A stretch of 64,000 nucleotides of DNA, taken from an uncultured Desulfarculaceae bacterium. GTDB taxonomy: Bacteria > Desulfobacterota > Desulfocorpusculales > Desulfocorpusculum. Below, one piece after another: positions 8,692-34,737 of the stretch; within the stretch, counting starts at the first letter, position 1; every line of letters starts with the position of its first letter. The position numbers and the translations under genes are program-made. The notes beneath the pieces are model-generated. The model was not told the DNA's origin. It saw only the letters and a program-made list of their open reading frames with translations, and ran no database searches. Where the stretch lies: NCBI GenBank assembly GCA_964514105.1, contig CAZEPJ010000010.1, forward strand, positions 12,242-76,241, given 5' to 3'.

Positions 8692-8719
8692 AGACTCCGC
8701 TCCGTCCGTGGCGGCGACG

Positions 8720-9691: not shown

Positions 9692-9755
9692 ATGCGCTCC
9701 TTACTCTCGCCGTCCCATGGATTGGATCAGCCTCGCACAGAGCTTCCCAGCGCCG

Positions 9756-10616
9756 TCAATGGGCCCGCTTGCCCAACAGCCCCCTCGGGCGGATCACCAG
9801 GACCACGATGATCGCCACCAAATAGACCATGTCGGGGTAGTTGGCCGATATGAGCCGGCTCACGACGGTCTCGGAATACCCCAAGAGCATGCCCGCGATG
9901 ATGGCCCCTTCCACGCTCCCCAGCCCCCCGATGATGACCACGGCGAAGGCCTTGAACAGGGGGAAGGCCCACATGTTGGGCACCGCCTCGAGGATGGGGG
10001 CGATGAGCACCCCGGCCACGGCGGCCAGCGCCGCCGAGATGCCCATGGTGATCAGATAGACCCGCTCCGTCTGGATCCCCACCAGCACGGCCGCATCCAC
10101 GTTCTGGGCCACGGCAGAGATGGACTTCCCCGTCCGCGTCCTGTGGATGAACAACCAGAGCATGACGACCAGAATGCCCGATACCAGGAATGTCAGGAGC
10201 TTCTGGTACGACACCAGGATGTCTCCGATGAGGACCTCACCCTCGATGAAGTTCTTGACCGCCTTGCCGTGCGGGCCGAAGAAGGCGTACATGAGTTCCT
10301 GAAAGAAGAGGGCGAAGGCCAGGGTGATGATGAGCACGTACACGTGGCGTTCCCGCATGGGCCGGATGCAGAAGCGGTCGATGACCATGCCCACGCCGGC
10401 CGTGCCCGCAACGGCCAGGGCCGCGGACAGAGGGACGTTGATCCCCAGGACGGACATGAAGGTGTAGCCCAAATACGCCCCCAGCATGTAGAACGCCCCA
10501 TGGGAGAGGTTGATGATCCCGGCCACGCCGAAGATCAGGGTGAACCCCACGGATATGAGGGTGTACAGGGCCCCCCAGATGGTCCCCAGCACGAGGATGT
10601 CGACAAATGTGGTCAT
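9756..10616 (-). CDS. ABC permease (LivH-like)
   Basis: GFTLIFGVAGIINLSHG, TGKSISAVAQN, IIGGLGS, RPRGLLG. Confidence 0.9.
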   Translation of the reverse strand: MTTFVDILVLGTIWGALYTLISVGFTLIFGVAGIINLSHGAFYMLGAYLGYTFMSVLGINVPLSAALAVAGTAGVGMVIDRFCIRPMRERHVYVLIITLAFALFFQELMYAFFGPHGKAVKNFIEGEVLIGDILVSYQKLLTFLVSGILVVMLWLFIHRTRTGKSISAVAQNVDAAVLVGIQTERVYLITMGISAALAAVAGVLIAPILEAVPNMWAFPLFKAFAVVIIGGLGSVEGAIIAGMLLGYSETVVSRLISANYPDMVYLVAIIVVLVIRPRGLLGKRAH

Positions 10617-10700
10617 CGCGCCTCCCTTCGGAACGGGGGCCTGGCCGCCGGCCGTGCACCACGGGCGGCTGAATTCCGCTTCGTCACACTCGGGTTCGTG

Positions 10701-10777
10701 ACCCCATCCCCACGCCTCCCTTTGCACAAGAGGGAACAAGTACGCCCCCTTGCCTGCAAGGGGCAGGGGGATGGGGT
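10701..10777. repeat. Bipartite palindromic REP-like element
   Basis: Perfect 11-bp terminal inverted repeat ACCCCATCCCC (10701-10711) / GGGGATGGGGT (10767-10777) enclosing two internal hairpins, CTCCCTTTGCACAAGAGGGA and CCCCTTGCCTGCAAGGGG. Confidence 0.6.
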
Positions 10778-10788
10778 GTAACCCGCCG

Positions 10789-12024
10789 CTACTTCTTCAC
10801 CCAGGGCGGAGGCACGTAGGGGCCGGTCTTGAACTGATCCGGCCACACGACCACCTGCTTTCCCCCTTCCTGCCACTGGACCATGGGCATGACATACCTT
10901 CCCTCCAGGAGGTCGTGGGACTCCTTGTCGAAGCCGATCTCGGGGTGCAGGACGCCCTTGTACTTGATGTCCTCCAACCCCGCGATGATGTCATCCGACT
11001 TGAGGGACTTCTTCTGCTTGATGACCTCGGCCAGCATGTAGACCGTGTCGTAGGTGAACCCGGTGGTGTACACGGGGTTCGTGCCGAACTGCTTGACGTA
11101 CTTGTCCCACATGGGGATGGTCTTGTCGGTGAGCGGCGCCCGGGCGATGAAGTTGTACGTGATCTCCCCCAGACACTTGCCGCCCGTCATCTCCCAGTAC
11201 TTGGAGTCCATGCCCTGGACGTTGCACAACCCCATTTCCGCGGCCTGGCTGTCCTGCCACGCCTTGGAGATGGTGATGCTTGCCGCATGGCTGACGATCT
11301 GGGCGATCCACTGGGCGCCCTTCCCCTTGATGGCCGCGAAGGTGGGGGAGAAATCCTTCACGTCCACGTCGAACATCTCATAGAAGACCACCTCGAGGCC
11401 GGCAGCCTCCAGATCCTTCTTGAGGTTGGGGCCGTACTCGTGGACCCACTTGGTGTTCTCGGCCAGGATGGCGAACTTCTTGTACCCCAGCTGCTTGTGG
11501 ACGAACTCGGTGAGGAACTTGGCCGCCCACTTCTGCTGCCGGATGTCCGAGTTGATCATGTTGCGGAAGAAGTACTTGTACTTGGCGTAGTCCTTCTTGA
11601 CGGCGTTGGTGAGGTCGATGGAGGCCGTTCCCGTGGCCACGTACACGATCTTGTACTGGGGCAGGAAAGGCTGTATGGCCAGGGCCACGCCGCTGGAGTA
11701 CGCCCCCACGAGCACGTCGACCTTGTCCTCCAGCACGAGCTTCTTCATGGCCGTGATGCCCTTCTCGGGCTTGCCCTCGGTGTCGCCCACGACGATCTCG
11801 ATCTTCTTGCCGTGGATGCCCCCCGCGGCGTTGATCTCCTCGGCGGCCATCTTGGCCGCATTGTGGATCCCCTGCCCCTGGGGGAGCTGAACCGGACCCA
11901 GGGAACCGATTCGGATGGTCTCGGCCTTGGCGAAATCCCGGTCGACGGCCAAGGCATGGCCCCCAGCCATGGAGAAAACCATGAGCCCACAGACGACGAT
12001 CCAGCCCAATGCCCTTGCCTTCAT
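10789..12024 (-). CDS. ABC substrate-binding protein (Liv-type)
   Basis: Signal peptide, IRIGSLGP, GDTEGKPE, VLVGAYSSG. Confidence 0.9.
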   Translation of the reverse strand: MKARALGWIVVCGLMVFSMAGGHALAVDRDFAKAETIRIGSLGPVQLPQGQGIHNAAKMAAEEINAAGGIHGKKIEIVVGDTEGKPEKGITAMKKLVLEDKVDVLVGAYSSGVALAIQPFLPQYKIVYVATGTASIDLTNAVKKDYAKYKYFFRNMINSDIRQQKWAAKFLTEFVHKQLGYKKFAILAENTKWVHEYGPNLKKDLEAAGLEVVFYEMFDVDVKDFSPTFAAIKGKGAQWIAQIVSHAASITISKAWQDSQAAEMGLCNVQGMDSKYWEMTGGKCLGEITYNFIARAPLTDKTIPMWDKYVKQFGTNPVYTTGFTYDTVYMLAEVIKQKKSLKSDDIIAGLEDIKYKGVLHPEIGFDKESHDLLEGRYVMPMVQWQEGGKQVVVWPDQFKTGPYVPPPWVKK

Positions 12025-13103: not shown

Positions 13104-14831
13104 TCAACGGCGGGGGGGGATGTGAATGGCCTCTTTGCTCCAGTCCAGGGCCGCCTCCATCACCGCTTCGGACAAGGTCGGATGCCCCTTGACCACCCCT
13201 CCCAGGTCTTCCACGGTCGCCTCCAGCCCCATTGCCAGGAGCCCCTCGCCCATGAGGTCCGTCGCATGCTCCCCCAGGATGTGGAGGCCCAGGATGCGCC
13301 CCAGACTCGCCTCGGCGATGATCTTGACGAACCCATCGGGCTCCCCCATGGCCATGGCCTTTCCGCTGCTGCCATACGGGAACCTGCCCACCCGCACGTC
13401 GAGCCCCCCGGCCCGGGCGTCCCGCTCCCTCAGCCCCACCGAGGCCACCTCCGGGAAGGTGTAGATGCAGCTCGGGATCCGATGGTAGTCCATCTCCCGG
13501 CACCGGCCCCGAGCGTTCTCCACGGCCACGATCCCCTCGGCCGAGGCGGCGTGGGCCAGCATCATCCCTCCCACGACGTCCCCCACGGCGTAGATCCCCT
13601 CGACGCAGGTCTCCATGCGCGCGTTGACCCGGACGAATCCCCTCTCCAGGGCAACGCCGATCCGCTCGAGGCCCAACCCTTCGGTGACGGGGACCCGGCC
13701 GGCCGCCACCAGGAGCCGATCCCCGGAGGCCCGATCCGCTTTTCCCGACGCGTCCCGGAAGGTCACCCCAACGCGCTTCCCCACGGCCTCCGCCCCAACC
13801 ACCTCCACCGCGGTGACGATCTCGATGCCCCGCCTGGCCAATAGCAGGGTCAGGGCGCGGATGACCTCGTCGTCCTCGCCTGCGGCGATGGTGGGGAGCA
13901 TCTCAAGCACGGTCACCTTGGATCCCAGCGCGTTGAAGATGCAGGCGAATTCCAGCCCGACGACGCCGCCGCCGATGACGATCAGATCGCGGGGGATCTG
14001 CTGGATCTCCAGGATCTGGTCGCTGGAAAGCACGCGCCTTCCGTCCACGGCCACCCCGGGGATGGCCGCGGGTCTGGAGCCCGTTGCCAGGATGATCGAA
14101 CCTGCCCGATACGATCCCGGCTCATCCCCCCCGGCGACCCGGATGGCGCCGGCCTCGACCACAGACGCCTCTCCCCGCACGAGCCGCACGCCGTTGGTCT
14201 GGAGCAGTTTGGCCACGCCCCGGGTCATGGCCCGGACCACGTCGTCCTTGCGGGCCACCATGCGCCTGAGATCAACCCGCAGGGCGTCTCCTCCCTCGTA
14301 CACCGATGACGAGCGGACCTTGAGGAGGGGCTTGACGTCGGACAGGAAGCACTTGGTGGGGATGCACCCCCGGTTGAGGCAGGTCCCCCCCAGGCGCTCC
14401 TTTTCCACGACGAGGACTTTGGCGCCCAGCTGGGCAGCCCGGATGGCCGCCACGTATCCCCCCACCCCGGCGCCCACGACGGCCACGTCATACGCCCCCT
14501 CTCCCCGGGGGGGCGCCGCGGCGCTTCCCGCCGGAGGAGGGGCGGTCGCCGACGAGGCGCCCTCGGCGGCGGGAAGCGCGGCCAGGGATTCCCCCTCGTG
14601 CAGGATGACCCCCACCACCGTCAGCACCGGGATCTCCACGCCCTCGGGCACCAGGATCCTCCCCAGTGTGCCCGAGGCCGGCGACTCCACCTCGGTGGTG
14701 ACCTTGTCCGCCTCCACCTCGAAGAGGGGCTCCCCCTTGACAACGGGGTCCCCCTCCTTCTTGAACCACTTGAGGATGGCCCCCTTCTCCACGGTGATGC
14801 CCAGCATGGGAAACACGACTTCCGTCGCCAT
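13104..14831 (-). CDS. lpdA: Dihydrolipoyl dehydrogenase (E3) with N-terminal lipoyl domain
   Basis: Lipoyl domain EVEADKVTTEVESPASG; FAD GAGVGG; redox disulfide GGTCLNRGCIP; NAD GGGVVG; HPTLSE. Confidence 0.93.
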   Translation of the reverse strand: MATEVVFPMLGITVEKGAILKWFKKEGDPVVKGEPLFEVEADKVTTEVESPASGTLGRILVPEGVEIPVLTVVGVILHEGESLAALPAAEGASSATAPPPAGSAAAPPRGEGAYDVAVVGAGVGGYVAAIRAAQLGAKVLVVEKERLGGTCLNRGCIPTKCFLSDVKPLLKVRSSSVYEGGDALRVDLRRMVARKDDVVRAMTRGVAKLLQTNGVRLVRGEASVVEAGAIRVAGGDEPGSYRAGSIILATGSRPAAIPGVAVDGRRVLSSDQILEIQQIPRDLIVIGGGVVGLEFACIFNALGSKVTVLEMLPTIAAGEDDEVIRALTLLLARRGIEIVTAVEVVGAEAVGKRVGVTFRDASGKADRASGDRLLVAAGRVPVTEGLGLERIGVALERGFVRVNARMETCVEGIYAVGDVVGGMMLAHAASAEGIVAVENARGRCREMDYHRIPSCIYTFPEVASVGLRERDARAGGLDVRVGRFPYGSSGKAMAMGEPDGFVKIIAEASLGRILGLHILGEHATDLMGEGLLAMGLEATVEDLGGVVKGHPTLSEAVMEAALDWSKEAIHIPPRR

Positions 14832-14856
14832 GGCAAGCCTCGGGTTCGGTCGATCT

Positions 14857-15891
14857 TCAGACCTGCAGAAAGGCGTACGCCGGGTTCTCCAGCCTCCCCT
14901 TGAAGGCCTGAAGGAAGGCGGCGGCCAGGGTCCCGTCGATGATCCGATGGTCCACCGAGAGGCCGAAGCAGGTCACGGGTTTGGTCCGGACCTGCCCGTC
15001 CACCAGGGCCAACCGCTCCTCCATCTTCCCCACCGACAAGATGCCGCTCTGGGGCGGGTTGAGGATGGCGGTGAAGCAGGTGATGTCGAACTGGGCGAGG
15101 CTCGACACCGTGAATGTGCCCCGCTCCATCTCCTCCAGGGTGAGCCGCCCGGCCCGGGCCCGCTCCACCAGGTCGGCCCGCGCGCGGGCGCTCTGGGCCA
15201 GGCCCAGCTCGTCGGTGCGGCGGATGGCGGGGACCAGGAGCCCCTCCTCGGATGCCACGGCAAGACCCACGTTGATCTCGGGGTGGACCACCGCCGACTC
15301 TCCGTCCACCCGGGCGTTGAGCAGGGGGAACTCCCGGATGGTGAGTGCCGCGGCCTTGAGGATGAAGTCGTTGAGGGAGACCCGCACCCCGTGGTCCCGC
15401 TCCAGCGCCGCCATCACGTCCGACCGAAGAGCCAGCAGCCGTCCCATTTCCACGTCGGTGAAGAAGTAGATGTGGGGGGCGGTGAAGGCGCTCTCGCTCA
15501 TGCGCCTGGCGATGGCCCGGCGCATGCGGCTCATGGGGATGGTCTGGCCCAACCCCACACCGCCCCAAGCGCTGCGGGGCGGGCGGGGGGAGGCCGCCTC
15601 GGTCCTTGCCCCGGATGGGACGTCCCGCAGAAAGACGCGCCCCCCCGGGCCGCTTCCCGGCACGCCCTCCAGGGAGATGCCCTCCCCATGAGCGAACCGC
15701 ATGGCCAGGCTGGTGGGCCGAAGGGGAGACGGGCCCGCGTCCCCTCTCCGGGGAAGCAGCGGTGCGTGCACACGGGCCTGCACGTCCCGCAGCAGTATGC
15801 TTCCGCCGGGACCCGAGCCTCGGAGCTCCGCCAGATCGACGCCGTGGGTTTTCGCCAGTTTCCTGGCCGCAGGCATGGCTCGAATGATCAT
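14857..15891 (-). CDS. Dihydrolipoamide acyltransferase (E2) lacking a lipoyl domain, with two E3/E1-binding domains
   Basis: Two PSBD repeats (AARKLA..HGVDL..L.GSGPGGSI...DV and LAMRFA...GISL..VPGSGPGGRV...DV); catalytic DHRIIDG; GGAGGAGG RBS before ATG. Confidence 0.9.
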   Translation of the reverse strand: MIIRAMPAARKLAKTHGVDLAELRGSGPGGSILLRDVQARVHAPLLPRRGDAGPSPLRPTSLAMRFAHGEGISLEGVPGSGPGGRVFLRDVPSGARTEAASPRPPRSAWGGVGLGQTIPMSRMRRAIARRMSESAFTAPHIYFFTDVEMGRLLALRSDVMAALERDHGVRVSLNDFILKAAALTIREFPLLNARVDGESAVVHPEINVGLAVASEEGLLVPAIRRTDELGLAQSARARADLVERARAGRLTLEEMERGTFTVSSLAQFDITCFTAILNPPQSGILSVGKMEERLALVDGQVRTKPVTCFGLSVDHRIIDGTLAAAFLQAFKGRLENPAYAFLQV

Positions 15892-15919
15892 GGCTCCTCC
15901 TCCGATCCCCTCCGGGCCT

Positions 15920-16900
15920 TCACGCGTAGGCCATGACGCGCCGCACCGCCTCCAGGACGTCCTCCTCGTCGGGGATGTAGGCCTTTTCCAGGGGCGGGCT
16001 GAAGGGCACGGGGGTGTCCGGCGAGCAGACCCTCGCCACCGGCGCGACCAGGCTGTCCAGGGCCTCTTCCGCGACCAAGGCCGAGATCTCGGCCGCCACG
16101 CCCGCCGTCAGGTGCCCCTCGTCAGCCACGATCAGCCGACCCGTCTTCCGCACGGAGCTCAGGATCGCCTCCTTGTCCAGGGGCGTCAGCGTCCTGGGAT
16201 CGACCACCTCCATCTCCACCCCTTCCTTCTCCATGTCCGCGGCCACCTTGAGGGTCCTGAGGACCATGGCGTGGGTGGCCACCACGGTGACGTCGCGCCC
16301 GGCCCGTTTGACCTCCGCCTGTCCGAAGGGAATGGTGTAGTAGTCCTCCGGCACCGGGCCCTTCTCCACGTAGAGCTTCTTGTGCTCGACGAAGACCACG
16401 GGGTTGTCGTTCCGAATGGCCTCGATCATGAGCCCCTTGGCGTCGTACGGCGTGGAGGGCGTGGCCACCAGGAGACCGGGGATGTGCATGAACAGGGCAT
16501 GGAAGCTCTGGGAGTGCTGAGCTGCCGCCCCACGGCCGGCCCCGATATTGACGCGCAGGACCATGGGGACCTTCCCCCGGCCTCCGAACATGTAGTGGAT
16601 CTTGGCCATCTGGTTCACGATCATGTCCATGCACACCGTTGTGAAGTCGATGAACATGATCTCCACCACGGGCCGCAGGCCGGTCAGCGCCGCTCCCACC
16701 CCGGCACCCACGAACGCGGCCTCGGAGATCGGCGTGTCCATGACGCGCTGGGGACCGAATTCCTGCAGCAGCCCGGCCGTGACCTGGAAGATCCCCCCGT
16801 ACCGGCCGATGTCCTCCCCCATGAGGAGGATGCGCTCGTCCCTGGACATGCTCTGCCGCAGGGCTTCGTTGATGGCCTGCGCATAGGTCAGCTCTCTCAT
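15920..16900 (-). CDS. TPP-dependent dehydrogenase E1 beta subunit (AcoB/PdhB-like)
   Basis: MRELTYAQAI, GEDIG, DTPISEAAF, EIMFIDF, AAQHSQS, DPRTL. Confidence 0.92.
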   Translation of the reverse strand: MRELTYAQAINEALRQSMSRDERILLMGEDIGRYGGIFQVTAGLLQEFGPQRVMDTPISEAAFVGAGVGAALTGLRPVVEIMFIDFTTVCMDMIVNQMAKIHYMFGGRGKVPMVLRVNIGAGRGAAAQHSQSFHALFMHIPGLLVATPSTPYDAKGLMIEAIRNDNPVVFVEHKKLYVEKGPVPEDYYTIPFGQAEVKRAGRDVTVVATHAMVLRTLKVAADMEKEGVEMEVVDPRTLTPLDKEAILSSVRKTGRLIVADEGHLTAGVAAEISALVAEEALDSLVAPVARVCSPDTPVPFSPPLEKAYIPDEEDVLEAVRRVMAYA

Positions 16901-16911
16901 GGTATCTCCCT

Positions 16912-17886
16912 TCATGCCGGGACGTGCACGTCCTCGAACATCTCCTGCAGCCCGGGAAACGGGCTTTCCTGGGCGAAACGAACGGCCTCGTCCAGCTCCT
17001 CGACCAGGGCCCTGTCCACCTGGGCCAGCCTCTTTCGGGTCACGAGCTTTTCCCCCAGCAGGCGCGCCTCGAGCCGCTTGATGGGGCATCGGGCCTTCCA
17101 TTCGTCGATCTCCTCGCGGGTCCGATAGCGTGCCCCCTGGTTGGGGTCACCCTCGTGGTGACCCCGCCAGCGGTAGGTCTTGCACTCCATGAGCGTAGGC
17201 CCCTCTCCGGCCCGGGCCCTCCGCACGGCCTTGACCGCGGCCTCACGGACGTCCAGCACATCGTTGCCGTCGACAACCACTCCCGGAATGTCGTAGCTCG
17301 TGGCCCGGATGGCGATGTCCTGGATCGGCTGGTGCATCTGCTGGTGCACGGAGATGCCGTACCGGTTGTTCTCACACACGAAGATCACCGGCAGTCTGTG
17401 CAGGGCGGCGAAATTGAGGCTCTCGTGAAAGGTCCCGTTGTTGGACGAACCATCGCCGAAGAAACTCGCCACCACCTGGTCGCTCTTTCGATACTTGGCC
17501 GACAGCCCGGCGCCCACGGCCAGGGGAAGGCCCCCTCCGGCGATTCCGTTGGCGCCCAGGATCCCGATGTCCATATCGGCGATATGCATGGAGCCTCCCT
17601 TCCCCTTGCAGTATCCTGTGCGCTTGCCAAAGAGCTCGGCCATCATGTACCTGAGCTCCGCCCCCTTGGCGATCACGTGCCCGTGGCCCCGGTGGGTGCT
17701 GGTGATGTAGTCGTCATGGCGGAGGGCGGCGCAGACGCCCGCGGCCACCGCTTCCTCGCCCACGTACAGGTGGGCCAGTCCCGGGACCTCTCCCCGGGCG
17801 TACAGATCCTGGATCCTCTCCTCGAACAGCCGGATCTTGAGCATCGTGGTATAGAGACCGAGAAGCTGCGCCTTGCTGGGGGCCAT
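16912..17886 (-). CDS. TPP-dependent dehydrogenase E1 alpha subunit (AcoA/PdhA-like)
   Basis: STHRGHGH, KGKGGSMH, TPP motif GDGSSNNGTFHESLN, TYRWRGH. Confidence 0.92.
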   Translation of the reverse strand: MAPSKAQLLGLYTTMLKIRLFEERIQDLYARGEVPGLAHLYVGEEAVAAGVCAALRHDDYITSTHRGHGHVIAKGAELRYMMAELFGKRTGYCKGKGGSMHIADMDIGILGANGIAGGGLPLAVGAGLSAKYRKSDQVVASFFGDGSSNNGTFHESLNFAALHRLPVIFVCENNRYGISVHQQMHQPIQDIAIRATSYDIPGVVVDGNDVLDVREAAVKAVRRARAGEGPTLMECKTYRWRGHHEGDPNQGARYRTREEIDEWKARCPIKRLEARLLGEKLVTRKRLAQVDRALVEELDEAVRFAQESPFPGLQEMFEDVHVPA

Positions 17887-17961
17887 GGCTCTCCTCCGGG
17901 GACCGAGCAGGGAAGTGGGCGGCCTGCGTCCGGCGAGTCGGACCGACCTGTCCGTGTCGTC

Positions 17962-17977
17962 AGCAATCTTCATGCCA
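17962..17977 (-). promoter_or_regulatory. Sigma54 (-24/-12) promoter of the dehydrogenase operon
   Basis: Minus strand TGGCATGAAGATTGCT matches TGGCAC-N5-TTGCW with exact spacing, about 75 nt upstream of E1 alpha. Confidence 0.85.
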
Positions 17978-18075
17978 GAGGGAGATCCCTGGTACGAGGC
18001 AGGCAAACCGTGCGCAGATGGCCGAGTCGCGTCCATTGCCGGGGAAAAGGGGGGCTCGGGCCACAGGGCCCGATC

Positions 18076-18140: not shown

Positions 18141-20111
18141 CTACCCGAGCCCGTGGCGCGCCATCCTGCGGTAGAGGGTGCTGCGCGAGATGTCGAGGGT
18201 CCTGGCGGCCAGGGAGCGGTTGCCCCGGCTCTGCCTCAAGGCCTTTTCGATCATCTGGCGCGTCCCGTCCCGGAGGGAGACACCCTGGAAGGATTCGGCG
18301 CCGGGCCTTTCCCAGAGGCGGTTGGTCAGATGCTCCATGCGGATGTCCTTGCCGTTGGACAGGATGAGGGCCCTCTCGAGGCAGTTCTCGAGCTCGCGGA
18401 CGTTGCCCGGCCAGTGATAGCCCTTGAAGGCCTCCAGGGCCTCAGCCGGGACCTGTGGCCTCTGGCGTCCCAACTCGGCGCATTGCCGATCCAGGATGCT
18501 GTCCATGAGCAGCTCCAGATCCTCCCGCCTCTCCCGAAGGGGGGGGACGCGGATTTCGACCACGTTGAGGCGGTAGTAGAGATCCTCCCTGAAATTCCTC
18601 TGTTCCACCTCCAAAAACAGGTCCTTGTTGCTCGCCGCGATGACGCGGACGTCCACCGCCATGGGCCCCTTGTCCCCCAGCCGTGTGACCTCGCTTTGCT
18701 GCAGTACCCTCAGGAGCTTGGCCTGGAGATCCAGGGGCAGACCGTCGATCTCGTCCAGGAACAGGGTGCCGCCGTCGGCCAACTCGAATCTGCCCACCTG
18801 CCCCTCCCGGCGGGCCCCCGTGAATGCGCCCCCGACGTACCCGAAGAGCTCGGCCTCGATGAGGTCCCGCGGGATGGCTGCGCAGGAGATGGCCACGAAC
18901 GGCCCTTCCCGGCGGGCGCTGTAGTTGTGGATGGCCTGAGCGAAGAGCTCCTTGCCCGTGCCGCTTTCGCCGACGATGAGGACCCTGGAGTTGGTCCTGG
19001 CGGCGATTCTGGCCAGCTCCACCTGCTTGCGGAAATGAGGGTCACGACCCTTGATATCCTCGAACCGATACCTGGCGTAGTTGCCTCCCAGGGCCTGCAC
19101 CATCCGGAAGACCTTTCCACGCTCGTGGATGGTGAGGACGCTGCCCCGCACCTCGCTGCCGCGTCCCAGGATGGGGAAAAGGCTGCAGATATGCCGTCGG
19201 GGCGGCTGGGAGGCGAAAAAGGATATCTCCCGGTTGGAGAAGTAGTCCTTCCCGGCAATGGCGTCGCTCATGGGCGGATCCGGTCGGCAGATTTCGTCCA
19301 GCCGCTTGCCCACCGCAGCCGCCCTTCCGAGGATGAGCGATCGCCTTGCCGCCTGATTGATGTGGGTGACCATGCCGTCTCTGTCCATGGCCACCACGCC
19401 ATCGGTGATGGCATCAAAGATGGCATTGAGGAGGTTGTTGAGGGACTCCTTTTCCCCGACCAGCTCCCTTTCCTTGATCCGCCCCTCGATGGCCCTGGCC
19501 GCCGAGATGACCAGCGCCAGGGTGTGTTGGTGTCTCCCCTTGGACATGCCCGACAGGGTGATGGCCCCGAGGAGGCGCCCGTGGCCATCGAGAATGGGGG
19601 CCGACGAACAGGTCCAGGGCTGGTGATGGACATTGTAGTGCTCAGCCCCCGTGAGCTGTATCGGCCTCCTTTCCACGAGGCAGAGGCCGATGGCGTTGGT
19701 GCCCGAATACGCCTCCGAGCGACACGAGCCCGGCAGATAGAAGTTCTCCTGCGCCATGCGCAGGATGGCCTCGTCGCCGAGGACCAGCAGGACGTATCCG
19801 TCCCGATCGGCCAGGGTGGTGATGAACCCCGTCCCCCGCACCGAAATCTCGAGCATCTCCACCACGGGTTCGGCCGCCGCGATGAACGCCTTGTTCTCCT
19901 CCAGGAGTTCTCGCAACCGTTGCCGAGACAGGGCCACGGCCTCTCTCTTGTGAGCGGGGTCCAACCCCAGGGCCCTGCACCGCTTCCATGACTCAAGGAC
20001 GTGTTCGCGCACTCCCCTCGTGGGCACCTGGCCCCTCAGGACAAAGGCCTCCCATGCCCCCTTGGTGGCCGCTGTCTCCCTGGGGCGCGAGGCGTTGCCG
20101 GTCCTTTCCAT
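18141..20111 (-). CDS. acoR: Sigma54-dependent Fis-family activator, GAF-PAS-AAA+-HTH (AcoR-like)
   Basis: SWKRC N-terminus, GTNAIG GAF motif, HQPWTCSSAPI, GESGTGKE, ELFGY..GAFTGA, LFLDEI, WPGNVREL, ISRSTLYR. Confidence 0.85.
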   Translation of the reverse strand: MERTGNASRPRETAATKGAWEAFVLRGQVPTRGVREHVLESWKRCRALGLDPAHKREAVALSRQRLRELLEENKAFIAAAEPVVEMLEISVRGTGFITTLADRDGYVLLVLGDEAILRMAQENFYLPGSCRSEAYSGTNAIGLCLVERRPIQLTGAEHYNVHHQPWTCSSAPILDGHGRLLGAITLSGMSKGRHQHTLALVISAARAIEGRIKERELVGEKESLNNLLNAIFDAITDGVVAMDRDGMVTHINQAARRSLILGRAAAVGKRLDEICRPDPPMSDAIAGKDYFSNREISFFASQPPRRHICSLFPILGRGSEVRGSVLTIHERGKVFRMVQALGGNYARYRFEDIKGRDPHFRKQVELARIAARTNSRVLIVGESGTGKELFAQAIHNYSARREGPFVAISCAAIPRDLIEAELFGYVGGAFTGARREGQVGRFELADGGTLFLDEIDGLPLDLQAKLLRVLQQSEVTRLGDKGPMAVDVRVIAASNKDLFLEVEQRNFREDLYYRLNVVEIRVPPLRERREDLELLMDSILDRQCAELGRQRPQVPAEALEAFKGYHWPGNVRELENCLERALILSNGKDIRMEHLTNRLWERPGAESFQGVSLRDGTRQMIEKALRQSRGNRSLAARTLDISRSTLYRRMARHGLG

Positions 20112-22049: not shown

Positions 22050-22199
22050 CGTGGACCTCCCAGGCATCTGTGACAACTCGGACCGCACCAGGGTATCACA
22101 GAACAAGGCCCCCGGGGTCCTCTTTCCGCCTTGACCGTTTACTCCGCCCCCGCCGCAGGTTACCATCTTCTCGAGGCATCATTCCCCCGGAGGTGCGCC

Positions 22200-23852
22200 A
22201 TGGCCCTGTCCCCCCTGGCCGGGAAACCGGCCCCGCGTGACATCCTGGTCAACGTCCCCAGGCTGGTGAGCGCGTACTATACCCAGAGCCCCGATCCCTC
22301 CGATCCGGCCCAGAGGGTCTGTTTCGGCACCTCGGGGCACCGGGGCTCGTCCCTGAACAACGGCTTCAACGAGGCCCACATCCTGGCCGTTTCCCAGGCC
22401 ATCTGCGATTACCGCAGATCGCGGGGGATCACCGGTCCGCTGTTTCTGGGCATGGACACCCATGCCCTGTCCGAGCCCGCCCACACGAGCGCGGTGGAGG
22501 TGCTGGCGGCCAACGAGGTGGACGTGATGATCCACCAGGGATTGGGCTTTACCCCCACGCCGGTCATCTCCCACGCCATTCTGGCCCACAACCGGGGGCG
22601 GACCCACGGCCTGGCCGACGGCGTCGTCATCACCCCTTCCCACAACCCGCCCCAGGACGGGGGGTTCAAGTACAACCCGCCCCACGGGGGTCCTGCGGAC
22701 ACCGAGGCCACCCGGGTCATCGAGGCCCGGGCCAACGAACTGCTGGCCCAGGGGGTGGGGAGCGTGCGCCGGATCCCTTGGGTGAGGGCTGTGGCCTCGG
22801 GTCGGGTCCACGAGCGGGACTATGTGGACCCGTACGTGAGGGACTTGGCCGAGGTCCTGGACATGGAGGCCGTGGCCGGCAGCGGGCTCAGGATCGGGGT
22901 GGACCCATTGGGGGGATCCTCCCTGCCCTTCTGGGATCCCATCTCGGCCCGTTACGGGGTGGGGATCGAGCTGGTCAACCGCGTGGTGGACCCGACCTTC
23001 GGCTTCATGACCGTGGATCACGACGGAAAGATCCGCATGGACTGCTCATCGCCCCACGCCATGGCAGGCCTCATCGGCCTGCGGGGGCGATTCGACATCG
23101 CCTTCGGCAACGACCCGGATGCCGACCGCCACGGCATCGTCACCCGGCGGGCCGGGCTCCTCAATCCCAACCACTACCTCACGGTGGCCATCCACTACCT
23201 GTTCGGGAGCCGCTCGGGCTGGCGGGGGGATGCGGCAGTGGGAAAGACCCTGGTATCGAGCTCCATGATCGACCGGGCGGCCGCCGGCCTGGGGCGGCGC
23301 CTGAGAGAGGTCCCGGTGGGCTTCAAGTGGTTCGTCGAAGGCCTGCTCGACGGTTCCTTCGGATTCGGCGGAGAGGAGAGCGCGGGGGCCTCGTTTCTTC
23401 GAAAAGACGGCACCGTCTGGACCACGGACAAGGACGGGATCTTGATGAATCTGCTGGCCGCCGAGATCACGGCCCGCACGGGCCGCACCCCGGACGAGAT
23501 CTACGCGGAGCTGGAGGGACGCCTGGGCAGCCCCGTGTACGAGCGCGTGGATGCGCCGGCCACCGCGGCCCAGAAGGCGGCGCTGGCCAAGCTGTCCGTT
23601 GACCTGGTGACGGCTCGTGAGCTGGCCGGAGAGCCCATCCTGGCCAAGCTGACCCATGCCCCGGGCAACGGAGCGCCCATGGGGGGCCTCAAGGTCGTGA
23701 CCGAAAACGGATGGTTCGCGGCTCGCCCCTCGGGCACCGAGGAGATCTACAAGCTCTATGCCGAGAGCTTCAAGGGGCCGGAGCATCTGAAGCGGATCCA
23801 GGAGGAGGCCCGGGCCATCGTCCAGTCGGCCCTGCGGGCGGCGGGGCTATGA
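22200..23852 (+). CDS. pgm: Phosphoglucomutase (alpha-D-glucose phosphate-specific)
   Basis: [10 protein letters not shown], phosphoserine TPSHNP, metal-binding [20 protein letters not shown]. Confidence 0.95.
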
Positions 23853-24476
23853 CCCCGCGGCCCGGCGCGGGACCCCCCATGCGGCCACGAACCGCTCCAG
23901 CACCTCGTAGGGCTGCGCCCCCACCAAGGCCCGCGTCCCCAGCACAAAGGTGGGGACGGCCGTCACGCCCATGGCGCGGGATCGCGCCCAGTCTGCGTCC
24001 ACGGCTGCCTTGAAGGAACGGGCCTCAAGCACGCGGCGGGCCTCCTCGCCCGAGAGCCCCACCGATCCGGCGATGCCCGCCAGGACCGGGACGCGGGCGA
24101 TGTTGGCGCCGTCCGCGAAATAGGCGCGGAAGGCCGCCGCGTGAAACGGGCCCCCCCTTCCCCGGGACTCGGCCCACTTGGCCAGCTCCTGGGCCAGGCG
24201 GCTGTTGTAGGTCCGGGTGCGCTGGCCCAGGGGAAGACCTTCCGCCTCGGCCGCCTCCCGGAGCCGGGCCATCATGGCCGGGATGTCCACGGGCCGCCCG
24301 GCGAAGAGATCCTCCAGGGTGCGTCCCTCATCCGGCGTCTCGGGGTGAAGGGGGAAGGCCTTCCATTGGACATCGATCTCGTACTTCCTGCGCAGTCGCT
24401 CGACACGCCCGGTGACGAAGTAGCACCAGGGTCAGATGTAGTCGGAGAAGATCTCCAGGGTCCAGTTCTGCGGCAT
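23847..24476 (-). CDS. DsbA/FrnE-like thioredoxin-fold oxidoreductase, probable selenoprotein (UPWC), 209 aa
   Basis: [37 protein letters not shown] reads in frame with ORF 23847-24290; cis-Pro loop GVTAVPTF; GAGGAGG RBS; TGA at 24432-24434. Confidence 0.85.
24387..24431 (-). promoter_or_regulatory. Candidate bacterial SECIS hairpin
   Basis: After the UGA: lower stem CCUG(G)UGC/GCGCAGG, upper stem UUCG-U-CAC[CGGGC]GUG-U-CGAG; apical loop starts 21 nt after UGA with G at position 2 (folded by hand). Confidence 0.55.
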
Positions 24477-24698
24477 CTGCTCCTCCTCGAGCCCCGGACC
24501 GACCCCAGGGCTCATCCCGGCTCGATGTATGCCAAGACGCGCCGGAGCGAGGGCCGGATCCCGGACTCCGGCAAAGTCGATCCGGGCCGTGGGCGCATGG
24601 CGCGTCTCGAAATGAAGGGACAGATCCACAGTACCCGGAGGCGCGCCGCCGAGTCAACGCGTGGCAGGGGTGGACGGCTGTCCCGGCCCGGGGCAGCC

Positions 24699-29855: not shown

Positions 29856-30099
29856 AGCCCGGCGCTTGGGAAGGATCCCCGCCCGAACGCCGCCACAGGG
29901 GTGATCGGGCAGGGACACGGGGCCTCCCCCCCCCCGGAGCGCGCCATTGCCGACCCCTTCACAAATCTATTGACATCGGATCCCCCTTGGTTTATTCAAG
30001 GCGTCTGCCGAATCAAGTGCGGCCGCATGGTTGGCATGGGGGCGTCCCGGTCGAGGTGTTGCGCCGGGCGCGGGGGGTGACGGTGGTGTGAGGTCGACC

Positions 30100-30855
30100 A
30101 TGGCTGAGGACTTCATCATCGAGACCCGCGATCTGTCCAAGGACTTCAAGGGGTTCTCCGCGGTGGTCAAGGTGAACCTCCGGCTCCGGCCGGGCACCAT
30201 CCACGCACTCATCGGCCCCAACGGGGCCGGCAAGACCACATGTTTCAACCTCATTACCAAGTTCCTCACCCCGACCCAGGGGCACATCTTCTTCAAGGGG
30301 CGCGAGATCACCCGGCTGAAGCCCGCGGAGATCGCCCGGCTGGGCGTCATCCGCTCCTTCCAGATCTCGGCCGTGTTCCTCCACATGACCGTGCTGGAGA
30401 ACGTGCGGGTGGCCCTGCAGAGAAAACTGGGCAACGCGTACCACTTCTGGCTCCCGGAGAAGGCCCTCCACGGGCTGCACGATCGTGCCATGGAGCTGCT
30501 GGCGGCCGTGGGGTTGGCGCAATATGCGCAGGTGCCGGCCGTGGAACTTCCGTACGGGCGAAAGCGGGCCCTGGAGCTGGCCACCACCCTGGCCCTGGAA
30601 CCCGAGGTACTGCTCCTGGACGAGCCCATGTCCGGCATGGCCCGGGAGGACATCGGACGCATTGCGGCGCTGATCAAGACGGTGGCTGCCAACCGCACCG
30701 TGCTCATGGTGGAGCACAACCTGTCCGTGGTGGCCGACCTGTCCGATCGCATCACGGTGCTGCACAACGGCATGATCCTGGCCGAGGGGACGTACGGGGA
30801 GGTGTCCGACAACCCCGAGGTGATCCAGGCGTACATGGGGGCGGGCCATGCCTGA
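30100..30855 (+). CDS. ABC ATP-binding protein (LivG-like)
   Basis: GPNGAGKTTCFN, RSFQIS, LPYGRKR, LLLDEP, QAYMG. Confidence 0.92.
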   Translation: MAEDFIIETRDLSKDFKGFSAVVKVNLRLRPGTIHALIGPNGAGKTTCFNLITKFLTPTQGHIFFKGREITRLKPAEIARLGVIRSFQISAVFLHMTVLENVRVALQRKLGNAYHFWLPEKALHGLHDRAMELLAAVGLAQYAQVPAVELPYGRKRALELATTLALEPEVLLLDEPMSGMAREDIGRIAALIKTVAANRTVLMVEHNLSVVADLSDRITVLHNGMILAEGTYGEVSDNPEVIQAYMGAGHA

Positions 30856-31564
30856 CTCCAGCGCCCCGGTCCAGCTCCTGGTGAGCGAACTGCACGCCTT
30901 CTACGGGGAGTCCCATATCCTGCACGGCGTTGGTTTCACGGTGCCCCGGGGGGAGGTGGTGACGCTCCTGGGTCGCAACGGGGCCGGCAAGACCACCACC
31001 ATGAAGGCCGTCATGGGCATGGTGCCAAGGCGCACGGGCAGGATCGTGTTCGAGGGGCACGACATCATCCACCTGTCCAGCAACCGCATCGCCCGGCTGG
31101 GCCTGGCCTTCTGCCCGGAGGAGCGCGGCATCTTCAGCAGCCTGTCGGTCACCGAGAATCTCGTGCTGCCGCCCGTGGTCCGGCCGGGGGGCATGGCCCT
31201 GGAGGAGATCTACCAGCTGTTTCCCCGCCTCAGAGAGCGGGGGGCCAGCCAGGGGACCAAGCTGTCGGGGGGGGAATCCCAGATGCTGGCCATCGCCCGC
31301 ATCCTGCGCACGGGCGCCTCCCTGCTCCTGCTGGACGAGCCCACCGAGGGCCTCGCGCCGCTGATCGTGCAGCAGATCGGCGAGATCATCCGGGGTCTCA
31401 AGGGACGGGGGTACACCATCCTGTTGGTGGAGCAGAACTTCCGCTTCGCCGCCACCGTGGCGGACCGGCACTTCGTGGTGGAAAACGGGGTGGTGGTGGA
31501 CATGGTGCCCAACGCGGATGTGAGCGCCCGAACCGAGGATCTCAGACGTTACCTGGGCGTGTGA
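30848..31564 (+). CDS. ABC ATP-binding protein (LivF-like)
   Basis: GRNGAGKTT, CPEERGIF, LSGGESQM, LLDEPTEGLAP, VEQN. Confidence 0.92.
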   Translation: MPDSSAPVQLLVSELHAFYGESHILHGVGFTVPRGEVVTLLGRNGAGKTTTMKAVMGMVPRRTGRIVFEGHDIIHLSSNRIARLGLAFCPEERGIFSSLSVTENLVLPPVVRPGGMALEEIYQLFPRLRERGASQGTKLSGGESQMLAIARILRTGASLLLLDEPTEGLAPLIVQQIGEIIRGLKGRGYTILLVEQNFRFAATVADRHFVVENGVVVDMVPNADVSARTEDLRRYLGV

Positions 31565-31595
31565 ACGCCCGAAACCCGAGGAAAGGAGCAACCCC

Positions 31596-32810
31596 ATGAA
31601 AAGCTTCGGCAGATTGGCGTTGGCGGCCGCGCTGGTGGCGGCCCTGGCATGGGCGGCGCACGCCCAGATCTCGGACGACGTGGTCAAGATCGGCGTGCTC
31701 AACGATCAGTCCGGCCTGTACGCCGACCTGTGCGGCCCCGGATCCGTCGAGGCCGTCAAGATGGCGGTGGAGGACTTCGGCGGAAAGGTGCTGGGCAAAC
31801 CCATCGAGGTGGTCTTCGCGGACCACCAGAACAAGGCGGACATCGGGGCCAACATCGCCAACAAGTGGATCGACGTGGACAAGGTCGACATGATCATCGA
31901 TCTGCCCAACACCGCGGTCTGTCTGGCCGTGCAGAAGATCTGCCAGGACAAGAACCGCATCGACATCATCTCCACGGGGGCCTCGGTCATCCTGACCAAC
32001 GAGAACTGCTCCCCCACGGGCTTCCACTGGACCTATGACAACTACGCCCTGGCCAAGGGCACCGGCCTCGCCCTCGTCAAGGACGGCGGGGACTCCTGGT
32101 TCTTCCTCACCGCGGACTACGCCTTCGGCCACGACCTGGAGAAGAGCACCGCCGCGGCCGTGACCAAGGCGGGCGGCAAGGTCCTGGGGCAGGTCCGCCA
32201 TCCGTTCCCCAACAACGACTTCTCCTCCTTCCTCCTCCAGGCCCAGGCTTCCAAGGCCAAGGTCATCGGCCTGGCCAACGCGGGGGGCGACACGGTCAAC
32301 GCCATCAAGCAGGCGGCGGAGTTCGGCATCACCCAGGCGGGCCAGCGGCTGGCCGGCCTCCTGGTCTTCATCTCCGACGTGCACAGCCTGGGGCTCAAGA
32401 CGGCCCAGGGCCTGGTGGTGACCACCGGCTTCTACTGGGACTTCAACGACGAGACCCGCGCCTGGTCCAAGCGCTGGAGCGCCCGGATGAAGGGGCGCAT
32501 GCCCACCATGAGCCAGGCGGGCTGCTACTCGGGGGCCATGCACTACCTCAAGGCCATCCAGGCCGCCGGCACGGACGAGGCCAAGGCCGTCTCCGCCAAG
32601 ATGCGGGAGATGCCGGTGAACGACTTCTTCGCCAAGAACGGCAAGGTGCGCCAGGACGGCCGAATGGTGCACGACATGTACCTGGCGCAGGTGAAGAAGC
32701 CCGACGAGTCCAAGTACCCCTGGGACTACTACAAGATCCTGCGGGTGATCCCCGGCGACGAGGCGTACAAGCCCCTGGAGGAGACCCTGTGTCCGTACCT
32801 GAAGAAGTAG
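31596..32810 (+). CDS. ABC substrate-binding protein (Liv-type)
   Basis: Signal peptide, QISDDVVKIGVLNDQSG, ADHQNKAD, DYAFGH, DGRMVHDMYL. Confidence 0.92.
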   Translation: MKSFGRLALAAALVAALAWAAHAQISDDVVKIGVLNDQSGLYADLCGPGSVEAVKMAVEDFGGKVLGKPIEVVFADHQNKADIGANIANKWIDVDKVDMIIDLPNTAVCLAVQKICQDKNRIDIISTGASVILTNENCSPTGFHWTYDNYALAKGTGLALVKDGGDSWFFLTADYAFGHDLEKSTAAAVTKAGGKVLGQVRHPFPNNDFSSFLLQAQASKAKVIGLANAGGDTVNAIKQAAEFGITQAGQRLAGLLVFISDVHSLGLKTAQGLVVTTGFYWDFNDETRAWSKRWSARMKGRMPTMSQAGCYSGAMHYLKAIQAAGTDEAKAVSAKMREMPVNDFFAKNGKVRQDGRMVHDMYLAQVKKPDESKYPWDYYKILRVIPGDEAYKPLEETLCPYLKK

Positions 32811-32824
32811 CCGCCGAGCCGGGC

Positions 32825-32851
32825 GGGGGCGGGCTCCATGGCCCCGCCCCC
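32825..32851 (+). terminator. GC hairpin after the substrate-binding protein gene (mRNA stabiliser/attenuator candidate)
   Basis: GGGGGCGGG-N9-CCCGCCCCC; no U-tract. Confidence 0.4.
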
Positions 32852-32883
32852 GCGCCGGCCCGCGCGGGGCAGAAGGCGTCCGG

Positions 32884-33771
32884 ATGTTCGAGCTGATCGG
32901 CATACCGCCGCAGGCCCTCTTCGGGCAACTGCTCCTGGGGCTCATCAACGGCGCGTTTTACGCCGTTCTGAGCCTGGGGCTGGCCCTCATCTTCGGCCTG
33001 CTCAACGTCATCAACTTCACCCACGGGGCCCAGTACATGCTGGGGGCGTACGTGGCCTGGCTGGGGATGACGTATGCGGGGGTGAGCTACTGGTGGTCCC
33101 TGCTGGCCGCCCCATTGGCGGTGGGGGCCTTCGGCATCCTCATGGAGCGGATGTTCCTTCGCTGGCTGTACCATCTGGACCATCTCTACGGCCTGCTGCT
33201 CACCTTCGGCCTGGCCCTGATCATGGAGGGGATCTTCCGCCAGATATACGGGATCTCGGGACAGGCGTACCCCATCCCCGCCCAGCTCACCGGGGCCCGG
33301 AATCTGGGGTTCATGTTCCTGCCCAACTACCGCGGCTGGGTGGTGGTCGCCTCGCTCATCGTCTGCCTGGCCACCTGGCTGATCATCGAGAAGACCAAGC
33401 TGGGGGCGTATCTGCGGGCCGGCACCGAGAACCCCGCCCTGGTGCAGGCCTTCGGCATCAATGTGCCGCGCATGATCACCCTGACCTACGGCTTCGGTGT
33501 GGCCCTGGCCGCCCTAGCGGGGGTCCTGGCGGCGCCCATTTATCAGGTCAAGCCCACCATGGGCGCGGACATGATCATCGTGGTGTTCGCGGTGGTGGTG
33601 GTGGGGGGCATGGGATCCATCCTGGGCTCCGTGGTGACCGGGTTCGTTCTCGGGCTGCTGGAGGGGCTCACCAAGGTCTTCTACCCGGAGGCCAGCAACA
33701 CCGTCGTATTCGTGGTGATGGCCATCGTGCTCCTGGTCAAGCCGGCCGGCCTTTTCGGAAAGGCGAACTGA
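32884..33771 (+). CDS. ABC permease (LivH-like)
   Basis: GLINGAFYAVLSLGLALIFGLLNVINFTHGA, GAYLRA, VGGMGSI. Confidence 0.92.
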   Translation: MFELIGIPPQALFGQLLLGLINGAFYAVLSLGLALIFGLLNVINFTHGAQYMLGAYVAWLGMTYAGVSYWWSLLAAPLAVGAFGILMERMFLRWLYHLDHLYGLLLTFGLALIMEGIFRQIYGISGQAYPIPAQLTGARNLGFMFLPNYRGWVVVASLIVCLATWLIIEKTKLGAYLRAGTENPALVQAFGINVPRMITLTYGFGVALAALAGVLAAPIYQVKPTMGADMIIVVFAVVVVGGMGSILGSVVTGFVLGLLEGLTKVFYPEASNTVVFVVMAIVLLVKPAGLFGKAN

Positions 33772-33777
33772 GTACCC

Positions 33778-34737
33778 GTGCGCATCCAACGGATTTCCAT
33801 CCTTCTGCTCCTGGCCCTGGCCCTGGCGGCCCCTTTCGTGGTCTATCCGGTTTTCCTCATGAAGGCCCTGTGCTTCGCCCTGTTCGCCTCGGCCTTCAAC
33901 CTGCTGCTGGGCTACGTGGGTCTGCTGTCGTTCGGCCACGCGGCGTACTTCGGGTTCGCCGCGTATATCTGCGGCCACGCGGTCAAGATATGGGGCTTCC
34001 CGCCCGAGGCCGGACTCCTGGCGGGCACGGCCGTGGCCGGTCTGCTGGGCCTGGTCTTCGGATGGCTGGCCATCCGGCGGCAGGGGATCTACTTTGCCAT
34101 GATCACCCTGGCCCTGGCCCAGATGATCTACTTCCTGTGCGTGCAGGCCCCCTTTACCCACGGAGAGGATGGGATCCAGGCAATCCCCCGGGGACGGCTC
34201 CTGGGGGTCGTGGACCTCACCGACAACCTATCCATGTATTATCTCGTCCTCGCGGTGTTCATCCTGGGGCTGCTGATCGTCCGCCGCGCCGTGAGCTCCC
34301 CCTTCGGGCAGGTGCTCAAGGCCATCCGGGAGAACGACGCCCGCGCCACCAGCCTGGGATACGATGTGGACCGCTTCAAGCTCATGGCCTTCGTGCTGTC
34401 GGCATCGCTCTCCGGCCTGGCCGGGGCCCTCAAGTCCCTGGTGTTCCAGCTCGCCTCGCTCACGGACGTGCACTGGCACGCATCCGGGGAAGTGGTCCTC
34501 ATGACGCTCCTGGGCGGGGTGGGCACGGTGCTGGGGCCGTCGGTGGGGGCCTTCCTGGTGGTCACCATCCAGAACTACCTGGCCGAGGTGGGGGCGTGGG
34601 TGACCATCATCCAGGGTGGCATCTTCGTGGTGTGCGTCCTCACCTTTCGACGGGGCATCGTGGGGGAAGTCAAGCTCTGGTGGCAGCGCCGCAGCGGGGC
34701 GATGCCCCCACCCGCCTCGGGAGGCCCGGCCCACTGA
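33778..34737 (+). CDS. ABC permease (LivM-like)
   Basis: GYVGLLSFGHAAYFG, RRQGIYFAMITLA, AIREND, LLGG.GT..GP; GTG start. Confidence 0.92.
   Translation: MRIQRISILLLLALALAAPFVVYPVFLMKALCFALFASAFNLLLGYVGLLSFGHAAYFGFAAYICGHAVKIWGFPPEAGLLAGTAVAGLLGLVFGWLAIRRQGIYFAMITLALAQMIYFLCVQAPFTHGEDGIQAIPRGRLLGVVDLTDNLSMYYLVLAVFILGLLIVRRAVSSPFGQVLKAIRENDARATSLGYDVDRFKLMAFVLSASLSGLAGALKSLVFQLASLTDVHWHASGEVVLMTLLGGVGTVLGPSVGAFLVVTIQNYLAEVGAWVTIIQGGIFVVCVLTFRRGIVGEVKLWWQRRSGAMPPPASGGPAH

Follow-up and report, generated by a model that had tools for sequence, protein, structure and literature searches.

DsbA-like proteins in which selenocysteine (Sec, U) takes the place of the first Cys of the active site, giving a UxxC motif, form a described selenoprotein family. 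The 'DsbA-like protein' (COG2761, UxxC) was reported from the Sargasso Sea in 2005 as a new family of selenoproteins, together with a predicted bacterial selenocysteine insertion sequence (bSECIS) element (PMC1088965; Zhang, Fomenko & Gladyshev). The family was found in 2006 in Anaeromyxobacter dehalogenans, Desulfovibrio desulfuricans and Desulfotomaculum reducens, among others (PMC1794560; Zhang et al.), and in 2007 in the Olavius delta-1 symbiont (PMC1976440; Zhang & Gladyshev), and a 2026 review carries it as 'DsbA-like protein form 1, PF01323, UxxC' (PMC13188914). Here we describe a gene on the minus strand, at 23847–24476, of a 64 kb stretch of contig CAZEPJ010000010.1 from an uncultured Desulfarculaceae bacterium (hereafter the window: the whole stretch of 64,000 nucleotides (nt) that was analysed, to which all positions refer unless another contig is named). 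Its frame is interrupted at codon 15 by a TGA, and we put at roughly 0.88 the probability that this is a functional Sec codon, served by a SelB-type SECIS, in a FrnE/DsbA-like oxidoreductase.

The window gene shows every testable defining feature of the DsbA-like selenoprotein family. It shares with that family the domain PF01323, a UxxC motif whose Sec replaces the first Cys and a bSECIS immediately 3′ of the UGA, and no qualitative difference separates the two, the assignment to this sub-clade resting on domain, motif and COG. Cys homologues are widespread in the family, and its selenoproteins are found in anaerobic Deltaproteobacteria, among them symbionts of Olavius; of the loci recovered here, L043 belongs to Olavius Delta 3. 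A sequence-only reading, made from the letters of the window before any database was searched, had noted that DsbA-like selenoproteins are known from Deltaproteobacteria, and the literature agrees (PMC1794560, PMC1976440). The result is therefore a sound annotation fix that leaves existing knowledge of selenoproteins unchanged, the family having been known since 2005.

The closest structural reference is FrnE, a cytoplasmic disulfide reductase/isomerase with a C-terminal CxxxxC motif that has been proposed to regenerate its active site. The FrnE subfamily (cd03024) has a CP(W/F)C active site near the N terminus, and the tail is common in it, not universal: the FrnE proteins of S. roseofulvus and D. 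maricopensis also do without it (PMC8945050).

An in-frame TGA at the active site of a FrnE-like gene

The coding sequence (23847–24476, minus strand) reads from ATG 24476–24474 to TAG 23849–23847 and comprises 209 sense codons, one of them for Sec, followed by the TAG stop. Its sole internal stop is the TGA at 24434–24432 (minus), codon 15, which as Sec15 would occupy the first position of a U-P-W-C redox motif. The resolving Cys of this motif, Cys18 (24423–24425, minus), is the only Cys in the translated protein. A Shine–Dalgarno-like GAGGAGG can be read directly at 24482–24488 (minus), 5 nt 5′ of the ATG, and homologues likewise start 8–14 residues ahead of the Sec codon. A mechanical list of open reading frames (ORFs) cuts the gene into two pieces, at 24432–24629 (65 amino acids) and 23847–24290 (147 amino acids). 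Translation confirmed the earlier proposal that, in spite of this split, a single frame with a GAGGAGG ribosome-binding site runs from ATG 24476 to TAG 23847. Beyond the TGA, 194 codons are intact and have a third-position GC content of 0.88.

With Cys put at codon 15, the Pfam DSBA domain (PF01323) spans residues 6–196 (E = 1.1e-35; 123.6 bits, with the cut-off at 25.6). The best match in the PDB is Deinococcus radiodurans FrnE (E = 5e-23 over residues 7–194), and in this alignment codon 15 coincides with the leading Cys of the CPWC motif in FrnE, which is where the sequence-only reading had located the UGA within the family motif. SCO1869 was matched as well (E = 4e-15), and this PDB sequence search returned no classical DsbA at E ≤ 1e-3. 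For the fold itself we used a proxy, the full-length Cys homologue P0006, which is 60% identical to the window protein and the same as the Sec forms around the active site. Its predicted model (predicted local distance difference test (pLDDT) 94.5, predicted template modelling (pTM) score 0.90) superposes on FrnE 5co3 with a template modelling (TM) score of 0.90, a root-mean-square deviation of 1.9 Å and ~32% identity, whereas classical DsbAs reach TM scores of 0.55–0.66. FrnE also superposes on the P0006 model better than do SCO1869, YjbH, 2-hydroxychromene-2-carboxylate (HCCA) isomerases and kappa-class glutathione S-transferases. The active site of the model lies at the start of helix 1. 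The triplet V174-P175-T176 (23949–23957, minus), all three residues of which are invariant in alignment A1, we take from general knowledge of the thioredoxin fold to be the cis-proline loop position; in the P0006 model, strand E177-180 directly follows the equivalent Pro176.

By direct reading, only 14 residues stand ahead of the U-P-W-C motif (residues 15–18), leaving no room for a signal peptide, so that the protein is predicted to be cytoplasmic, like FrnE. Its sequence thus points to the FrnE branch within the DsbA family and to a thiol-disulfide oxidoreductase of ~23 kDa with a predicted cytoplasmic location. With D. radiodurans FrnE (DR_0659; PDB 5cnw, 5co3, 5coh) it shares an xPWC motif located where helix 1 begins and the lack of a signal peptide. 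The two differ in the position of the active site, residue 15 in the window protein and residue 22 in FrnE, and in the replacement of Cys22 by Sec. They differ further at the C terminus: the window protein ends at residue 209 with C18 as its only Cys and has no counterpart of the 239-CxxxxC-244 tail, so that its recycling must differ from that of D. radiodurans FrnE. It thus offers a well-supported case of Sec standing for the nucleophilic Cys in a predicted cytoplasmic FrnE-type oxidoreductase that has no regenerating C-terminal Cys pair.

Conservation of the TGA and translation through it

A genome scan, in which each GTDB species was represented by one genome, yielded 80 loci, from a total of at least 564 relatives, and TGA was found at the identical codon in all 80. 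These loci come mostly from Thermodesulfobacteriota metagenome-assembled genomes (Desulfobacterales, Desulfatiglandales, Syntrophales, Desulfarculaceae and Desulfobaccales), together with single genomes of Abyssobacteria, Thermodesulfovibrionia and Acidobacteriota. No relative in this genome collection exceeds 69% identity to the window protein, whose host has a GC content of 68%. A metagenome scan seeded with a Cys-form alignment, which was meant as a control, likewise returned TGA in 75 of the 76 loci with a readable motif, the remaining one being a Cys form. Furthermore, a Logan assembly of run SRR12686701 (L081) matched window positions 22479–24446 at 100% identity over 1,968 nt, TGA included.

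Across 154 aligned Sec-form sequences P-W-C is invariant, and the residues L-E-I-F-S-D-Y that precede the TGA are conserved, at 69–100% depending on the position and at 90% or more in five of the seven (154 ungapped Sec forms). The codons for these same seven residues have a relative codon entropy of 0.76–0.99. Since the residues 5′ of the TGA are conserved and their synonymous positions change freely, both sides of the TGA must be translated in one frame. These patterns point to purifying selection on the protein in this frame, upstream and downstream of the TGA alike.

If instead the TGA were a private nonsense mutation in a dead gene, or a base-calling or assembly error for what is really TGC or TGT, a truncated gene call and sporadic changes at the codon would be expected, and both can be found: the gene caller's product at this locus is a fragment of 142 amino acids (P0003), and single-base switches at the codon occur in relatives (TGT in L162, TGG in L168). 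A TGA private to this assembly, which the sequence-only reading had named as the outcome that would speak against a selenoprotein, is nevertheless excluded by its presence at the same codon in 80 of 80 and 75 of 76 independent loci. The same base also appears in the independent Logan assembly, the 194 codons past the TGA are intact and retain their third-position GC of 0.88, and the hairpin described below is kept against the host's codon bias. We therefore regard the pseudogene or error explanation as effectively refuted, with a negligible chance of being correct.

Selection on an RNA hairpin 3′ of the UGA

A conserved SECIS upper stem-loop, UUCGUCAC-CGGGC-GUGUCGAG, occupies 24399–24419 (minus), starting 12 nt after the UGA. 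Its stem has eight positions (seven pairs and a U.U mismatch), and its apical loop, CGGGC, lies at 24407–24411 (minus). As the sequence-only reading had stated, the first loop base is the 21st nucleotide after the UGA and the second loop base is a G.

To describe the evolution of this element we used alignment A2, which covers 60 nt from the UGA in 81 sequences without gaps and in which columns 16–23 pair with columns 29–36. Most loops are CGGGC or CGUGC, 5 nt in length. Stem cells are paired in 88% of cases, as against 20–59% when the partners are slid, and the observed covariation of the stem was reached by none of 500 shuffles. The pair 19–33 is AU in 70 sequences and GC in 8; the pair 21–31 is UA in 67, CG in 13 and AU in 1, and is broken in none; the pair 23–29 is CG in 80 and UA in 1; and position 20–32 is usually U.U or G.U. 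RNAalifold independently yields the same stem. In a larger set of 159 sequences the pair 21–31 is again unbroken, an observation that does not depend on a tree. On a gene tree (neighbour joining on protein with the hairpin codons removed, and hence crude), column 21, column 31 and the state of the 21–31 pair each undergo 16 changes, indicating that the changes in the two columns coincide, and the pair 19–33 undergoes about 10. In the covarying columns a synonymous third codon position is coupled to a first codon position 10–14 nt away, and constraint on the protein therefore cannot explain the covariation of the stem.

Codon choice bears the same imprint. Numbered from the TGA, the dominant codons in Sec forms are TTC for Phe at +5 (151 of 151), ACC for Thr at +7 (138/153), GGG for Gly at +8 (109/116), CGT for Arg at +9 (132/134) and ATT for Ile at +10 (110/121). 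Relative codon entropy at +5 and at +7 to +10 is 0.00–0.30 and is low only over the hairpin: it is 0.72–1.0 at −8 to −2 and from +12 on, even at an invariant F-P-L-H-P, and takes intermediate values of 0.60–0.74 at the codons beside the TGA (−1, +1 and +3). Inside the stem, codon +6 is the exception at 0.60, since its third position falls in column 21, the covarying partner of column 31. The window stem UUCGUCAC/GUGUCGAG has both compensatory variants, G19–C33 and C21–G31, and keeps CGT, although this triplet makes up 4.7% of Arg codons in its host with a 68% GC genome. When the region was recoded synonymously according to the codon usage of the window, at least seven of the eight stem pairs arose in 0.86% of 200,000 trials (P = 0.0086). 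Taken together, these data demonstrate selection on the hairpin at the level of RNA. The resulting signature, UUCRNYAC-CGKGC-GURNYGAR at 12 nt after the UGA, is nearly invariant and covarying.

We compared this element with the published bSECIS model, that of bSECISearch, which describes a loop of 3–9 nt on an upper stem of 4–16 bp, a G within the first two bases of the loop and typically a G or U after it, a distance of 16–37 nt from the UGA to the loop, and a folding energy of −7.5 kcal/mol or lower (PMC13188914, Fig. 2A). The window element agrees with the model on all four points. It has a 5-nt loop (columns 24–28) on a stem of eight positions, seven of them paired. The loop reads C-G-G-G-C; G25 has a conservation above 90%, and relatives carry G or U at position 26. 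The 20 nt (columns 4–23) between the UGA and the first loop base are invariant in the 81 sequences, and with the upper stem enforced the window folds at −13.4 kcal/mol (48 nt) to −14.6 kcal/mol (60 nt). With this model, whose prototype is the E. coli fdhF SECIS, the element shares loop size, stem, the G at loop position 2 and its place within the coding sequence 3′ of the UGA, whereas its primary sequence is family-specific and unrelated to the fdhF SECIS. It departs from the model in three respects: a mid-stem U.U or G.U (column 20 with column 32) stands where a bulge would be, the lower stem is unconserved, and a mutually exclusive hairpin, discussed below, is energetically preferred in isolation.

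The hand-folded SECIS-like element of the sequence-only reading (24387–24430, minus) included this lower stem, 24430–24423 with 24393–24387. The best fold of the window with the upper stem enforced reproduces that hand-fold exactly, and the upper stem-loop has proved real and conserved. By contrast, the lower stem (columns 5–12 with 42–48) forms in the window but was rejected as a conserved feature, since 52% of its cells are paired across the 81 sequences.

Cys and Trp forms and their database records

In a search of 5.8 billion proteins, the top 120 homologues fell into three kinds. In 42 a true CPWC motif is present, with codon 15 of the window gene aligning with its first Cys; 43 are truncated at the N terminus, starting just past the motif and so losing the active site; and 35 read 'W-P-W-C'. 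The truncated kind includes the database call for the window gene itself, the 142-residue P0003, in keeping with the earlier prediction that automatic pipelines would truncate the gene. Four of the W-site homologues were checked at the DNA level, and three of these proved to be TGA mis-read as Trp and one a genuine TGG (P0007). The idea that every database 'W' at the Sec site is a mis-read TGA was accordingly dropped, being wrong for P0007. Trp mis-reads of the form 'FSDY[IV]WPWC' come from short metagenome contigs, L169 (187–813), L170 (136–777) and L171 (276–905), with the protein records P0002, P0001 and P0010. Evidently the gene caller picked a code in which TGA is Trp because the ORF was then longer, thereby hiding selenoproteins as complete Trp proteins.

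Nor does NCBIfam offer a remedy: release 20 holds no model for a DsbA-like selenoprotein, and its sole match to the window protein is a partial one to NF041057, 'Rcas_1661 family thioredoxin-like (seleno)lipoprotein', which scores 32 bits where 190 are required. That no model is dedicated to the family is probably one reason for the persistent mis-annotation. The window gene and hundreds like it are stored wrongly, as truncated fragments, as proteins with Trp for Sec or as pseudogenes; the SECIS signature could serve as a simple and specific marker to correct such records and to flag Sec-using Thermodesulfobacteriota in metagenomes.

The hairpin tends to disappear with the TGA. In a control set of six Cys forms (L148, L162, L163, L164, L165 and L166) it is lost in four (L148, L163, L164 and L165, with 5–6 pairs and +2.2 to +5.5 kcal/mol), and L166 has 6 pairs and −3.5 kcal/mol. 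Together with the conservation of the TGA and the covariation of the stem, this link of hairpin to TGA supports the proposal of the sequence-only reading that the gene encodes a genuine UxxC selenoprotein with a SECIS just 3′ of its UGA.

Two relatives may have been caught shortly after a change. L162 (gene 259–879; P0006) has TGT at the Sec position together with the exact hairpin of the Sec clade and the codons TTC ATT ACC GGG CGT ATT GAA; it resembles a Sec-to-Cys switch of very recent date that has left a fossil SECIS. P0007, named 'DsbA family oxidoreductase' at NCBI, corresponds to L168 (GCA_018819005.1, JAHJQU010000359.1, gene 2431–3051) and to L167. In L168 a genuine TGG stands at the Sec position, the consensus SECIS hairpin is intact and the neighbouring genes still stop at TGA; this TGG reflects either an inactivating Sec-to-Trp change that happened very recently or an error in the consensus. 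Such loci would show Sec-to-Cys and Sec-to-Trp switches at a stage at which the fossil SECIS is still in place. The Sec-dominated FrnE clade, in which at least 98% of the sampled loci have TGA, could conceivably form a subfamily apart, acting on a substrate of its own in anaerobic Thermodesulfobacteriota.

Competing folds and alternative decoding

Several observations weigh against reading the TGA as Sec by way of a SelB-type SECIS. The Cys set is small (n = 6), and L162 (Cys) and L168 (Trp) both keep an intact hairpin. Rfam gave no match at gathering thresholds over the whole window, or at E ≤ 10 over 24330–24500. Only 72% of the family reach −7.5 kcal/mol in the 60-nt context, and the upper hairpin alone has −5.2 kcal/mol in the window and a mean of −4.1 kcal/mol across Sec forms. 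The plain minimum free energy of the 60 nt after the UGA equals that of shuffles (z = 0.00), with another hairpin favoured: this competitor (columns 5–11 with 21–27) has −18.0 kcal/mol, as against −14.6 kcal/mol for the SECIS fold. Finally, selA, selB, selC/tRNA-Sec and selD were not found within the 64 kb window.

Folding, which the sequence-only reading had put forward as a check, thus did not single out the SECIS hairpin, which is not the minimum-energy fold in the window. Single-sequence energy can neither validate nor reject this SECIS. The competing hairpin lies at 24430–24408 (minus), over the invariant Pro-Trp-Cys and the Thr-Gly codons, and excludes the SECIS stem. It is pairable in 92% of cells, but its covariation equals that of shuffles (199–285 of 500) and gives no sign of selection. 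With the UGA in the ribosomal A site, the 5′ bases of the competitor should, from what is generally known of ribosome footprints, lie inside the ribosome, so that it would be unable to form at the moment of decoding. It is conceivable that the two exclusive hairpins constitute a functional switch that tunes SelB recruitment or couples Sec insertion to the rate of translation: on free mRNA, half of the SECIS stem would be tied up in the competitor, and an approaching ribosome would melt this hairpin, so that the SECIS became available only when the UGA was close to the A site. We consider this elaboration doubtful, with a small chance of being right.

The absence of this machinery from the window bears on a further explanation, in which the gene is a relic of a lineage that has lost the ability to insert Sec, so that translation terminates at codon 15 or an internal start gives a truncated protein. 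The window contains no tRNA, and none of its plausible genes has a SelA, SelB or SelD domain. The organism also has no close sequenced relative, the best matches of the adjacent phosphoglucomutase ('Deltaproteobacteria bacterium' and 'Candidatus Binatia') being 73–75% identical. Absence of sel genes from 64 kb, a small fraction of a genome, nevertheless says little. Moreover, two lineage-specific compensatory double changes (G19–C33 and C21–G31) preserve the window stem, the rare CGT codon has been retained, the downstream frame is without decay, and a product begun after the TGA would be without strand 1 and the whole active site. A relic gene is thus improbable, and the maintained TGA and SECIS suggest that the organism is competent for Sec insertion.

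A third explanation accepts read-through while denying that Sec is inserted: the UGA would be reassigned throughout the genome (genetic code 4 or 25), or be read by near-cognate decoding as Trp, Cys or Arg with the hairpin as a mere stimulator. Database callers do put Trp at the site in several homologues, and one relative (L168) truly encodes it. Within the window, however, TGA is the stop of 38 of the 44 Pfam-supported genes, and as an ordinary stop it indicates that the code has not been reassigned. The codon also aligns with the catalytic Cys, at which Sec is a known functional replacement (PMC1088965), and the hairpin fits the SelB-type bSECIS model in its loop G-G/U and spacing (PMC13188914). 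Trp as the nucleophile would abolish redox activity. Decoding as an amino acid other than Sec is, in our judgement, very improbable.

These considerations leave a functional Sec codon as the favoured interpretation, under which translation would begin at ATG 24476. As the UGA (24434–24432) reached the A site, the hairpin at 24419–24399, 12 nt downstream, would stand at the mRNA entrance and would present SelB-GTP-Sec-tRNA(Sec), so that Sec would be inserted and termination avoided. The resulting protein would cycle between a selenol/thiol state and a U15–C18 selenenylsulfide, reducing or isomerising disulfides of its substrates as the Cys pair of FrnE does.

Genomic surroundings of the probable selenoprotein gene

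The selenoprotein gene is monocistronic in the window. It is divergent from an Fe-alcohol dehydrogenase gene and convergent with the phosphoglucomutase gene (22131–23852, plus), with which it overlaps by 6 nt at the 3′ ends (23847–23852); no intrinsic terminator-like site was found between these two convergent genes. Across the 80 genome loci no neighbour is common to more than six, and the context therefore offers no functional clue.

No other TGA-interrupted gene was found across the 64 kb. Candidates at 33769 and 37873 were rejected as junctions of adjacent genes, and those at 14909 and 27556 as antisense artefacts of real genes, in the 2-oxoacid dehydrogenase complex region and the 3-hydroxyacyl-CoA dehydrogenase gene.

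Elsewhere in the window, the ORFs at 60200–60883 (minus) and 62078–63211 (minus) have coding-like third-position GC and no Pfam family at E ≤ 1e-3. A protein of 143 amino acids with an RF-1 domain, encoded at 51147–51578 (plus), looks from its domain and size like a peptidyl-tRNA hydrolase of the ArfB/YaeJ type; next to its gene lies a 570-residue ORF without a Pfam match (51582–53294, minus). Genes for a UbiD-family decarboxylase and a UbiA-family prenyltransferase stand side by side at 53348–55769 (plus). Several sets of Liv-type branched-chain amino-acid ATP-binding cassette (ABC) transporter genes occupy 204–4250, 7242–12024 and 30031–34737. A complete operon for a 2-oxoacid dehydrogenase complex (E1 alpha, E1 beta, E2, and E3 with an N-terminal lipoyl domain) extends over 13104–18036 (minus), adjoined at 18141–20111 by the gene for a sigma-54 activator with GAF and PAS domains.

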